From a virus (taxonomy: Duplodnaviria; Heunggongvirae; Uroviricota; Caudoviricetes), in the IMG/VR virus record IMGVR_UViG_3300010279_000202, positions 1-9,195 of that record: 9,195 bases of DNA; one strand, given 5' to 3'. Of this stretch, positions 6,331 to 8,780 are shown one piece after another; position 1 is the stretch's first letter, and every line of letters starts with the position of its first letter. A program made the translations under genes and the position numbers. Under the pieces are notes generated by a model. The model worked only from the letters and a program-made list of their open reading frames with translations, had not been told where the DNA came from and did not search any database.

Positions 6331-6590
6331 TATCTCACCTCCAGTCTCCATACCGCCTGACCAATCCGGCTGGCATGGGTATCTTTGGATACTGTTCCGT
6401 CTTTAGCCATCTCCATAAGAATTTTGCGCAAATCTGCCGAACGCCATTCTTCATCAGGAAATTCCTTCTCCATTGCCAACCGCAGATTCCAGGTTGCCAT
6501 CCTGAATGGATATTCCCCGCCGAGAGCTTTATCTTGCAGGGCAGCCCGGGAACGCATCACCTGCAAAACCTTCTCTTTTACATCCATCAT
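6330..6590 (-). CDS. Hypothetical protein, 86 aa
   Basis: Track ORF 6330..6662; preferred ATG at 6590 (MMDVKEKVLQ...) forms an ATGA overlap with the upstream stop and follows a strong AGGAGG SD. Confidence 0.65.
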   Translation of the reverse strand: MMDVKEKVLQVMRSRAALQDKALGGEYPFRMATWNLRLAMEKEFPDEEWRSADLRKILMEMAKDGTVSKDTHASRIGQAVWRLEVR

Positions 6591-7543
6591 TTCGCCTCCT
6601 GCGGCGGTTCTGGTAGCGGCATCCAGTGTGACGGTTTCCACGACGCACCAGGAATTATCCACCCATCATTAGCGTCAGGATGCCCCGGGATGTAAGTCGC
6701 CCATTTCATTCGCCAGTCACCTTTCCTGTCAAACTCCACGGCAACAAGAACGGCTGTTTTGGTATTCGGCATTCGCTCACTACAGCTTATCCAACCATCC
6801 GGAGTTACCGGAACTTGCGGAATGGCTGTCTGCTCTCGAACGTCATTAGGCGCTATAGGTTCTGCTGCCAACTGACTGGCATATTTGTTAATGGTAACGA
6901 TAAGCTCTTGCTCGGCCTCATCCAGACAATCACCGATACCTCGCCTGTCACCGTCAAAATCATCGAAATCGGCACGAATCTTGGCAACCTTCTGGATTGC
7001 AGACAACACCTCACTAGGAATTACCGGATAGTTGGTTGACGTTTCCGCGATTTCCCGAAAATTATTGGTTGACGAATTCTTGTTTTCCCGAAAGTTTCCG
7101 GACTGAAGCATGGCGGCGCGGCAGGCGTTCCATATTTCGGCAGCAATATCGCGCTCGCTATCGGTTAATTTGTACGTGGAAACATAGCCAGAGAGCATTT
7201 CTACGTTTTCCGGAGTTGCTTCTTCCGGCACTACCGGCGCTGGCAAGGCAGCGTGATAGTAGAGTGGCATAGTTTTGTACAGTGGTTCGCCAGGACTTCC
7301 GTCAACCTGATTCCATTCTTCAACCCAGGCATCAACAACCGCTTTGCTGGTTGATACATGTTCTTCTGAATCTACATTTTGTCCTGATATACTGAACATA
7401 ACTGCCTCTGCCTCCAGCGATGCCAGAGCAATTCGTGCCAGTTCTTCCGCTTCTTCTGCTGGCAGTACAACGTTGCTACCCGGTCCGTATGTTTCGCGCC
7501 ACTGCTTGATTGTCAGCAGTCGCTCTTTGGTAATAGTGATCAT
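6587..7543 (-). CDS. Phage protein, 318 aa, with C-terminal DUF551-like region; N-terminal domain paralogous to ORF 8418-8780
   Basis: C-terminus ...DANDGWIIPGASWKPSHWMPLPEPPQEAK resembles the Trp/Pro-rich DUF551 signature as I recall it from enterobacterial prophage proteins. N-terminus (MITITKER..., ELARIALASLEAE, WNACRAAML) parallels the 120-aa ORF downstream in the window. Confidence 0.8.
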   Translation of the reverse strand: MITITKERLLTIKQWRETYGPGSNVVLPAEEAEELARIALASLEAEAVMFSISGQNVDSEEHVSTSKAVVDAWVEEWNQVDGSPGEPLYKTMPLYYHAALPAPVVPEEATPENVEMLSGYVSTYKLTDSERDIAAEIWNACRAAMLQSGNFRENKNSSTNNFREIAETSTNYPVIPSEVLSAIQKVAKIRADFDDFDGDRRGIGDCLDEAEQELIVTINKYASQLAAEPIAPNDVREQTAIPQVPVTPDGWISCSERMPNTKTAVLVAVEFDRKGDWRMKWATYIPGHPDANDGWIIPGASWKPSHWMPLPEPPQEAK

Positions 7544-8055
7544 GCCGCGTTTCCTTCTTTCTTATTAACAATTACACCGTCATATATTTCATTAAGGTGC
7601 CCTCTCAACTCCATGCGCCTTAATGCAGATAACATGTAATCGCATTCAACCTGCTTATTTCCAGTAAATGGCTTATCGTCAGGATTACCCCAACAGCAAT
7701 TACCCTTGGGCCACCCATGTACTTTCCGTACTCTTCCGTTAACAACGTGAAGTAATCCCCAGCCAGGTGGTAAATCCTCAACTGAAATAATTCCCGGCTC
7801 ACTAATAAAGAATCGCCAGTCGCCCATTCCAAGAGATGGATTTTTACGAAAACGCTTTTTTCTATCTGCCAACAAGTCAGCACGAGAACACTTCGCCTCT
7901 ATCAGGCATGATGCTGAATTTCTGAATCCCATAGCATCTGGCTGTTCTCCGGTACTGGTTACAGCTATAAAGCGGTCATGAAAACAAACCTTGAACCCGT
8001 TGCGCTTAAGGAACTTATACGCAATCTGACAGAGTTCGCGGTGTGTTAACGCCAT
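7540..8055 (-). CDS. PD-(D/E)xK-motif nuclease-like protein, 171 aa
   Basis: Track ORF 7540..8127; preferred ATG at 8055 (MALTHRELCQIAYKF...) preceded by AAGGAGAG SD. Contains ...QPDAMGFRNSASCLIEAK..., i.e. P-D, then 14 residues, then E-x-K, the classic restriction-endonuclease-like signature. The motif reading is inference. Confidence 0.7.
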   Translation of the reverse strand: MALTHRELCQIAYKFLKRNGFKVCFHDRFIAVTSTGEQPDAMGFRNSASCLIEAKCSRADLLADRKKRFRKNPSLGMGDWRFFISEPGIISVEDLPPGWGLLHVVNGRVRKVHGWPKGNCCWGNPDDKPFTGNKQVECDYMLSALRRMELRGHLNEIYDGVIVNKKEGNAA

Positions 8056-8056
8056 A

Positions 8057-8245
8057 TCACTCTCCTTTAGTGCGCAAGTGGTTTTTCCAGCGGTTTTGCG
8101 CCGCGCTGGGCTTTTTGCAAAAACCACAATCCATCATCCCGTAATATTTCATCAACCCCATCCGTCGGTTGCTGAGTCTCACCCACTGCCAGACGCCAGG
8201 AGCGTTTCTACGAACTAACAGAATCTTTGCTTTACGGTTTTTCAT
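8057..8245 (-). CDS. Small basic protein, 62 aa
   Basis: ATG at 8245 forms an ATGA overlap with the upstream micro-gene and follows an AGGAGA SD; product MKNRKAKILLVRRNAPGVWQWVRL...CGFCKK... is K/R-rich. Its stop overlaps the SD of the next gene. Confidence 0.45.
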   Translation of the reverse strand: MKNRKAKILLVRRNAPGVWQWVRLSNRRMGLMKYYGMMDCGFCKKPSAAQNRWKNHLRTKGE

Positions 8246-8418
8246 CGCTTTGCTCTCCTGCGTCTCTTTGCTGCTCGTCGTGCCGCTGCAATACCGGTAT
8301 GGCGGCGCTTTGGTGCCGGGATGATGTTGTCAGCCATCAGGACATGTGGCTTTGCAATTAGCGCAGAAGCCCAAAAACGAGTCGGGTACGGTAACAAGCC
8401 GAAAAATGCCACACGCAT
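8242..8418 (-). CDS. Small protein, 58 aa, with arginine-rich tail
   Basis: ATG at 8418 overlaps the upstream stop (TAATG) and follows GGGAGGTGAG SD; product MRVAFFGLLPYPTRFWASALIAKPHVLMADNIIPAPKRRHTGIAAARRAAKRRRRAKR. Below the track's size cutoff. Confidence 0.4.
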   Translation of the reverse strand: MRVAFFGLLPYPTRFWASALIAKPHVLMADNIIPAPKRRHTGIAAARRAAKRRRRAKR

Positions 8419-8780
8419 TACTCACCTCCCTTACCCTGAAGCATGGCAGCGCGGCAGGCGTTCCAGCCATCAACATAATCAAACGTATTGCTATCGTCTG
8501 GATCGATTTCATCCGGCACTACCGGCTCTGGTTGGATAGTGACGTTGGCAAAGGCAGCACGCAAACCGGCCTTAATTTCCTCTACTTCATCAGCGCCTAG
8601 CGATGAATCTGACAATGCGTGATGGAATGCGTAAGCCATGTCGTCGTTTACTGCAACCGGTTCGGCTTCCAGTGATGCCAGCGCAATTCGTGCCAGTTCC
8701 ATTTGTTCGCCACGGGTAAGCCCGTTATCAAGCGGATTTTTAATGAATAATTCGATACGTTCTTTGGTAATAGTGGTCAT
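8418..8780 (-). CDS. Hypothetical protein, 120 aa, paralogous to the N-terminal domain of the 318-aa DUF551-like protein
   Basis: MTTITKERIELFIK...ELARIALASLEAE...WNACRAAMLQGKGGE; start forms an ATGA overlap with the upstream stop. Shares 26-28-bp near-identical DNA patches with 6587-7543. Confidence 0.75.
   Translation of the reverse strand: MTTITKERIELFIKNPLDNGLTRGEQMELARIALASLEAEPVAVNDDMAYAFHHALSDSSLGADEVEEIKAGLRAAFANVTIQPEPVVPDEIDPDDSNTFDYVDGWNACRAAMLQGKGGE

Follow-up and report, generated by a model that had tools for sequence, protein, structure and literature searches.

Why should two genes of one operon, unlike over most of their length, carry short stretches of nearly identical DNA in the same order? 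Our study takes up this question at a locus of the IMG/VR virus record IMGVR_UViG_3300010279_000202, of which positions 1 to 9,195 were analysed; this whole stretch of 9,195 nucleotides is referred to here as the window. The genes in question encode a 318-aa Eaa-like protein with a DUF551 domain (gene A) and a 120-aa protein (gene B). A preliminary description, made from the letters of the DNA, had seen in them a paralogous domain with near-identical DNA patches, attributed to recent gene conversion or domain shuffling, and had taken the long gene for a fusion of this domain to DUF551. Here we document the islands of similarity, their positions as junctions, the combinatorial reassortment of the segments between them and a set of natural hybrids. 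We conclude that genes A and B are probably members of a cassette-built family of early-operon genes, in which the patches are the junctions where homologous recombination reassorts cassettes. The near-identical patches of A and B would then be junctions common to the family and seen twice in one operon, and no sign of a conversion between these copies.

Patches shared by genes A and B

A repeat search brings out four short co-linear DNA patches common to the two genes, which we call START, ELAR, PVVP and WNAC after the residues that they encode (coordinates in Table 1). Three of these had been listed in the preliminary description, and a recount reproduces the 27/28 matches between 7105-7132 and 8438-8465 and the 25/26 between 7419-7444 and 8674-8699. 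The start-region pair exists at 17/19 when 7523-7541 is set against 8760-8778; the partner first given, 8761-8779, is one base off and yields 5/19. The shared motifs are real, and the PVVP pair (PxPVVPxE), absent from that list, adds a fourth. Across the family five conserved motif patches are seen: MxTITKER, ELARIALASLEAE, PxPVVP, WNACRAAML and, at the start of DUF551, PVTPDGWISCSE. The fifth island, PDGW, takes the form PVTPDGWISCSERMP in gene A and marks the entry to DUF551. Gene A is therewith built as START - c1 - ELAR - c2 - PVVP - c3 - WNAC - c4 - PDGW - DUF551, where c1 to c4 are the segments between patches; gene B has the same START, ELAR, PVVP and WNAC scaffold and stops six codons past the WNAC motif.

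Chance is excluded as the source of these matches, because the best 26-mer in 200 shuffles of A and B reaches at most 20 matches, against 25 observed. BLASTP aligns the two proteins at E=4e-12 (34% identity, 32% gaps), the score coming from the islands, to which the similarity is limited: for the three stretches between patches, Smith-Waterman scores do not rise above the mean of shuffles (P=0.53-0.85). The objection foreseen in the preliminary description, that the similarity might be confined to short low-complexity stretches without a significant score, is right in that the similarity is confined to islands; these are, however, not of low complexity, and the total score is significant. The term 'paralogous domain' likewise suits the islands, which are alike, but overstates the relationship, since the intervening cassettes are unrelated. 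What genes A and B have in common is a scaffold made up of junction motifs rather than a homologous domain as the term is usually understood.

The identity of the patch DNA exceeds what the amino acids require, because the same codon is used at 23 of the 31 degenerate codons of identical residues, where local codon usage predicts 10.1. A count of 23 was reached in none of 200,000 codon simulations, and the identical codons include the rare CGA and CTT.

Cassettes begin and end at the patches

When positions 6300-9195 of the window are compared with other genes of the family, nearly all high-scoring segment pairs (HSPs) of at least 93% identity have a start or stop at a patch, and near-identical cassettes of other phages begin and end exactly at the patches. 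In gene B such HSPs run from 8780 to 8656, 8665 or 8677, from 8699 or 8688 to 8503 or 8515, from 8521 to 8435 and from 8459 to 8203, with many stopping at 8434-8437. In gene A they run from 7861 to 7406 or 7407, from 7861 to 7527, from 7433 to 7224, from 7243 to 6768, from 7132 to 6768, 6595 or 6311, and from 6630 to 6336. The stops at 7527 fall in the START patch of gene A and belong to HSPs with other phages; at its WNAC patch five HSPs begin at 7132 and a sixth at 7133. The PDGW patch appears as an isolated HSP of 45-48 nt (45 nt for 6768-6812) at 93-100% identity in 12 otherwise different genes, all but one at 97.8% or more, and other HSPs stop at 6768. In an all-against-all comparison 59% of high-identity HSP ends lie within 12 nt of a patch, a zone that makes up 25% of gene length, although part of this enrichment is built in because HSP ends must fall at the edges of conserved islands.

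A phmmer search of the whole library, analysed independently of the motif definitions, gives a matching result at the protein level. The motifs of gene B occupy residues 3-8, 28-40, 84-91 and 106-114, and of 300 ends of gene B matches 298 fall at residues 1-5, on a motif or next to one, or at residues 47-81, 99-113 and 48 (11 ends). In almost all of the 150 best representatives the matched stretch starts at residues 1-5 or 20-41 and ends at 82-98 or 114-120.

The segments on the two sides of a patch occur in many combinations. Two samples were used: 80 IMG/VR loci with the gene B protein, and at least 119 viral and 13 genomic loci carrying the exact 27-nt WNAC patch. Around the exact WNAC patch 42 left and 52 right flank types occur in 77 combinations with 4 four-gamete quartets; around ELAR 12 left and 18 right types occur in 28 combinations, and around PDGW 14 and 14 in 23. 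The comparison that gave the ELAR and PDGW counts holds 3 quartets at ELAR, 1 at WNAC and 5 at PDGW. Left contexts thus pair with several right contexts and vice versa, the four-gamete signature of recombination, and near-identical segments abut unrelated sequence with their borders at short conserved stretches, which is the signature of mosaicism.

Natural hybrids and sister plasmids

Several relatives are recombinants of the two genes or of parts of them. The clearest is P0127, from a P22-like Escherichia coli prophage (L083), which joins the 5' end of gene B to the rest of gene A (window 8793 to 8665 joined to 7444 to 6324); the two alignments overlap by 35 nt, which are the ELAR patch, and the switch falls there. 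In P0042 the N-terminus is that of gene A and the middle that of gene B; P0006 has the gene B module with the very DUF551 of gene A; in P0128 an Ea22-like N-terminus precedes the middle part of gene A; and P0003 has a further recombinant architecture. Elsewhere among the relatives the gene B module forms fusions with DUF551, with Ead_Ea22 (PF13935) or with some other tail. The idea of domain shuffling in the preliminary description is borne out by these alternative fusions, as is the view that the long gene is modular, with a B-like N-terminal scaffold joined to DUF551; P0006 and P0127 are direct instances of both.

Sister P1-like plasmids are 98-99% identical to the window around gene A, and gene A itself differs by complete cassette replacement. 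In p20-20P1 (L001) it is fully different between ELAR and WNAC: identity stops inside ELAR and resumes at WNAC, and in the ELAR patch itself the 5' part resembles that of A and the 3' part that of B. In the Punavirus MH422554 gene A is replaced between the ELAR and PDGW patches. As a separate observation, p20-20P1 lacks gene B together with a 69-aa gene (8427-8987), and also an 86-aa gene downstream of A (6343-6590); these differences are insertions or deletions of whole-gene modules, because their end points lie at gene boundaries.

Conservation of the patches across the family

The DNA under the motifs is conserved family-wide (65 distinct family genes). Among 53 distinct genes the two commonest alleles of the WNACRAAML DNA, found in 14 and 12, are the two copies of the window. 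Gene pairs with unrelated 60-nt flanks on both sides (about 29% identity) keep 75-91% nucleotide identity in the patches, and use the same codon for identical residues at a frequency of 0.58-0.93, against about 0.33 expected; the highest value, 0.93, belongs to PDGW. Where patches vary, the changes are mostly synonymous and keep the frame. At least 119 IMG/VR contigs carry the exact 27-nt WNAC patch, as do genomes of Escherichia, Shigella, Enterobacter, Citrobacter, Atlantibacter and Intestinirhabdus; the exact 30-mer of the gene A allele is found in 672 of 5426 complete E. coli genomes, in up to four copies and mostly in chromosomal prophages.

Origin of the patches

These data favour a model in which each gene of the family would be a run of short coding cassettes, linked in frame by conserved junction patches of 23-45 nt in the fixed order in which the five motifs are listed above, the fifth being present where DUF551 follows. 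The cassettes come in discrete, mutually unrelated types, and the patches in essentially one type throughout the gene pool, conserved to codon choice. The family spans lambdoid prophages and P1-like phage-plasmids and includes Eaa/DUF551 proteins and fusions with Ead/Ea22. Homologous recombination among co-resident phages, prophages and phage-plasmids would cross over within the patches and in this way reassort the flanking cassettes; its likely agents would be the single-strand-annealing recombinases of phages (Erf, Red-beta, RecT) acting on short homology, or RecA. Phage recombinases of the Rad52 type have been shown to generate mosaics through short, diverged homology, and the same study quotes 23-27 bp (Red-beta) and 31-34 bp (RecA) as the shortest segments that pair efficiently (PMC3945230); the patch sizes are comparable. 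A dependence on such enzymes would follow circumstantially from the patch length and from the position of erf beside the family in the P22-like prophage L083, in which the genes lie in the early-left operon directly downstream of cIII, kil, erf (a Rad52_Rad22 gene), ssb and abc2.

Several points weigh against this model. The concentration of HSP ends is partly built in, as noted above, its informative part being the one-sided junctions, the hybrids and the four-gamete patterns; patch-bearing loci were chosen by gene B similarity or by the exact patch, and are a non-random sample; and flank types were set by ungapped identity, which may over-split them. The longest exact runs between the patches of A and B, 15-17 nt, are below the quoted minimal pairing segments, and the two window copies would therefore be poor partners for each other. 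Finally, the 75-91% conservation of patches between genes is below the 93-100% seen within a cassette type, so that no special selection at the DNA level is required and a young, mixed gene pool with protein constraint could suffice. The conservation of patches at the codon level may thus reflect protein constraint together with a young mixing gene pool, or else homogenisation or selection linked to recombination.

A stronger claim, which we consider unlikely, is that the patches are kept as in-frame recombination linkers and that the family is a device for combinatorial diversification. Temperate phages and phage-plasmids of Enterobacteriaceae would then reshuffle early accessory cassettes by means of their own annealing recombinases, and the shuffled products might be host-targeting or counter-defence factors. 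The idea of linkers is part of the classical modular theory of phages. In the tail-fibre adhesins of T-even phages conserved in-frame motifs (the His-boxes of gp37 and the glycine-rich motifs of gp38) delimit variable segments and are thought to be recombination sites; these are host-range proteins of virulent phages, in which diversity has a documented selective benefit. The proposed device would resemble this motif-mediated shuffling, but would span lambdoid and P1-like elements, and genes A and B differ from the adhesins in being early accessory proteins of temperate elements.

Rather improbable, in our estimate, is an explanation of the Hendrix type, in which the motifs are maintained by the needs of the protein, such as a helical core or a binding site, illegitimate recombination is random, selection retains the in-frame joins and the identity of the DNA is a by-product. 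The motif residues are indeed nearly invariant in alignments; START, ELAR and WNAC lie in helices 1, 2 and 5 of an AlphaFold2 (AF2) model of gene B at a predicted local distance difference test score (pLDDT) of 70-85; and traces of flanking homology were found for only about 30% of mosaics in the lambdoid survey (PMC3945230). Yet the excess of shared codons between genes with unrelated flanks goes beyond protein need, and the switches fall inside patches, as in the ELAR patch of p20-20P1 and the 35-nt overlap in L083. The fit of patch length to the pairing segments of phage recombinases is a further point against it, and independent illegitimate joins would have to recur at the same codon in dozens of combinations, which is unlikely.

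Recent gene conversion or unequal exchange between A and B within this genome, the first suggestion of the preliminary description, is very unlikely to have made the identical patches. The two genes lie 1.24-1.33 kb apart as direct repeats within a single operon, and their codon identity above the amino-acid requirement would fit such an exchange. The WNAC alleles of A and B, however, differ, being the two commonest of the family, and 7 of the 45 positions of the ELAR patches are mismatched; concerted evolution is not what is seen when each copy carries a common allele of other genomes. The short exact runs also speak against conversion, as does the fact that the patch of each copy is contiguous with cassettes 97-100% identical to it in other phages, and the same patches stand in hundreds of genomes with a single copy. 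Barely credible, last, is that the patches are functional nucleic-acid elements (sites of a site-specific recombinase or shufflon, RNA structures, small-RNA targets or Chi-like hotspots), since their strong conservation at the DNA level and the eight Chi sites of the window are set against the lack of any Rfam match, of any Chi inside 6587-8780, of promoter-like or terminator-like sites above chance level and of recombinase or reverse transcriptase domains in the ten open reading frames (ORFs) scanned with Pfam and NCBIfam, as well as against variation that is mostly synonymous and in frame, as for coding sequence, and against direct rather than inverted repeats in co-oriented genes, which is the layout of neither a shufflon or invertase nor a diversity-generating retroelement.

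Divergence of a single ancestral domain was considered as well and was rejected: the segments between patches have no residual similarity, and the cassette types are discrete and recombining.

Architecture and family membership of genes A and B

Genes A and B belong to a very large family of Enterobacteriaceae prophage genes, with more than 8000 members, from the lambdoid early-left "ea" operon, and by position they are early, non-essential accessory proteins. Both are already in the databases, gene A with 100% identical proteins: it is identical to P0121, annotated 'DUF551 domain-containing protein', and near-identical proteins bear this name or 'Eaa protein'. The DUF551 assignment of the long gene in the preliminary description is secure, residues 250-315 matching positions 1-68 of the 68 of PF04448 at 75.4 bits (gathering cut-off 22). 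Gene B has no PF04448 match, and therefore gene A alone is a member of the DUF551 family. Neither gene matches PF13935 (Ead_Ea22) at E<=0.01, a domain present solely in the fused relatives P0032, P0051 and P0128, and NCBIfam has no family for either. Both match the scaffold families phrog_60, phrog_5117, phrog_660 and phrog_3323, which cover the N-terminal TITKER/ELAR/WNAC part (E=1.6e-53, 3.5e-24, 1.1e-20 and 3.1e-17 for gene A; 1e-20, 2.4e-12, 7.2e-15 and 4.1e-16 for gene B); phrog_14306 is an additional match of gene A and phrog_12449 of gene B. Gene B represents a common short form of the family, with tails of at most 10 aa after 20 of 126 exact WNAC patches. The 33-nt tandem repeat in cassette c4 of gene A has one unit fewer in the relative P0149.

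The operon may hold a third member of the family, more diverged than A and B, in the 214-aa ORF at 4532-5176. Residues 6-49 of this ORF align with gene A by BLASTP (E=0.003, 37% identity over 46 aa) and it matches phrog_60 at 3.9e-16; it shows no similarity to gene B. A weak module of the TITKER...ELAR type appears to begin at its internal Met6.

The AF2 model of gene B has five helices, with PVVP in a long coil (pLDDT 72.7; predicted template modelling score, pTM, 0.38). Foldseek searches of the Protein Data Bank (PDB) and BFVD with this model returned nothing at E<=0.001. The AF2 model of gene A, built on a 33-row alignment, was unusable (pLDDT 41, pTM 0.21) and was for this reason left out of the fold search, and among PDB sequences gene A matched nothing beyond a globin, by chance (E=0.077). 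PADLOC found no defence-system match among the ten operon proteins. As a guess held with low confidence, the products of the two genes might be helical host-interaction factors.

Table 1. Coordinates of genes A and B, their patches and neighbouring features in the window (HSP, high-scoring segment pair; CDS, coding sequence).
Feature	Position	Strand	Evidence or remark
Gene A, 318 aa, Eaa-like / DUF551 domain-containing	6587..7543	minus	ORF; PF04448; PHROG; CDS in CP056619.1
START patch, gene A: ATG-ATC-ACT-ATT-ACC-AAA-GAG-CG (M-I-T-I-T-K-E-R)	7521..7543	minus	21/23 vs 8758-8780
ELAR patch, gene A (ELARIALASLEAE-AV), crossover site	7400..7444	minus	38/45 vs 8655-8699
PVVP patch, gene A (P-A-P-V-V-P-E-E)	7220..7243	minus	22/24 vs 8508-8531
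WNAC patch, gene A (W-N-A-C-R-A-A-M-L-Q)	7103..7132	minus	29/30 vs 8436-8465
33-nt tandem duplication in cassette c4 of gene A (NFRENKNSSTN / NFREIAETSTN)	7032..7096	minus	repeat search
PDGW patch (P-V-T-P-D-G-W-I-S-C-S-E-R-M-P), junction into DUF551	6768..6812	minus	gene A only
DUF551 domain of gene A, residues 250-315	6599..6796	minus	PF04448, E=6.8e-21
Gene B, 120 aa	8418..8780	minus	ORF; PHROG; annotated in source record; 3055 homologues
START patch, gene B	8758..8780	minus	many HSPs start at 8780 or 8773
ELAR patch, gene B	8655..8699	minus	repeat search; HSP ends; L083 hybrid
PVVP patch, gene B	8508..8531	minus	HSPs stop at 8503-8542, start at 8521
WNAC patch, gene B	8436..8465	minus	more than 15 HSPs stop at 8434-8437; L043 spans 8459 to 8203
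Three unrelated small genes between A and B	7540..8418	minus	ORFs; CDS in related records
171-aa gene	7540-8055	minus	between A and B
62-aa gene	8057-8245	minus	between A and B
58-aa gene	8242-8418	minus	between A and B
Possible third, more diverged copy of the N-terminal module (MTRITEERISEI...EIAQQMLALRQKE)	5030..5161	minus	BLASTP, phrog_60

Comparison with known systems

The closest known system is that of the ea22 genes in the exo-xis part of the early-left region of lambda and Stx phages, which are mosaic and in which DUF551 has been called a 'portable domain' (PMC10834534). Genes A and B resemble it in operon neighbourhood, host range and the combination of a shared N-terminal part with interchangeable C-terminal domains, DUF551 among them, and the gene B relatives P0032, P0051 and P0128 are fused to Ead_Ea22 itself. 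They differ in that their scaffold (TITKER / ELARIALASLEAE / WNACRAAML) is not the Ea22 coiled coil and that the mosaic is finer, with cassettes of 20-100 codons and five DNA junctions that are not described in that paper. With the relaxed recombination of lambdoid phages (PMC3945230) the family shares blocks of more than 90% identity that abut unrelated sequence with short homology at the border, and recombinase genes of the phage in the same operon; unlike there, the junctions are intragenic, in frame and in a fixed ordered series instead of at gene boundaries, and the present element is a P1-like phage-plasmid exchanging with lambdoid phages. As regards DUF551 and P22 EaA-type proteins, the C-terminus of gene A is a full-length DUF551, which gene B lacks, and membership in this family explains nothing about mechanism.

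Mosaicism of the operon (PMC10834534) and exchange between P1-like elements and phages (PMC10879196) were already known. Our search of the literature library turned up no specific account of these motifs or of mosaicism in eaA, nor of five such DNA junctions in frame and in a fixed order. The case is one of a known kind of phage mosaicism at an unusually fine, intragenic scale, with no new mechanism or function. It gives a fine-grained view of how accessory genes of temperate phages are assembled, from interchangeable cassettes and ordered in-frame junctions of 23-45 nt, and shows P1-like phage-plasmids drawing on the gene pool of the lambdoid early operon. In practical terms, the annotations 'DUF551', 'Eaa' and 'hypothetical' in this region cannot be used as orthologues and whole-gene phylogenies are meaningless; the family is also a convenient natural substrate for gauging the shortest homology that phage recombinases use in the wild.

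Replicon and operon setting

Positions 4000-9195, the part queried, are 100% identical to the E. coli plasmid pRHBSTW-00313_2 (CP056619.1), a P1-like phage-plasmid of 110.7 kb. The window holds the P1 backbone genes pdcB (DUF968), doc/phd, humD and lxr and then runs into a variable region similar to P7 and SJ46. From 4173 to the right every gene of the window is encoded on the minus strand, in a single tightly packed operon with overlapping stop and start codons, which upstream of the window continues in the source plasmid with two ead/Ea22-like genes. Much of the segment 6300-8430 is 96-98% identical to Shiga toxin (Stx)-converting lambdoid phages. The region is lambdoid 'ea'-type accessory DNA carried on a P1-like element, as the Stx-phage identity, the upstream ead/Ea22-like genes and the placement of the family in the P22-like prophage indicate. 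The identity of 6318-8429 to Stx-converting phages also points to recent exchange between the P1 and lambdoid groups; none was seen in the smaller sample of an earlier survey (PMC3945230).

Of the three small genes between A and B, PHROG matches are to phrog_9263/631 and phrog_13831. The 171-aa gene encodes a PD...(E)xK-like motif (PDAMGF...LIEAKCS), which suggests a restriction-endonuclease-like nuclease fold; it has no match in Pfam, NCBIfam, PADLOC or the PDB sequences. A shared 'AAAGGAGAGTGATATGGC' junction, with ribosome-binding site, stop codon and start codon, lies ahead of the 171-aa gene (8051-8074; ATG at 8055) and of the 69-aa gene, which is unrelated to it (8982-9005; ATG at 8986); this junction is the gene-boundary counterpart of the intragenic patches. 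Its positions imply that the ORFs listed as 7540-8127 and 8777-9067 begin too far upstream.

Two further observations concern the rest of the window. For the AT-rich stretch 3098-4172 (about 1.07 kb, GC content 0.39-0.42) the annotation of the source plasmid shows no CDS; its conservation in phage SJ46 is 99.7%, and in phage P7 small upf91.x genes are annotated there. The P1 genome is rich in Chi, and in the 9.2 kb of the window Chi (GCTGGTGG) occurs eight times where shuffles predict 0.2: seven times in one orientation, at 197, 454, 622, 1834, 4211, 5292 and 6165 on the minus strand, and once at 4154 on the plus strand.

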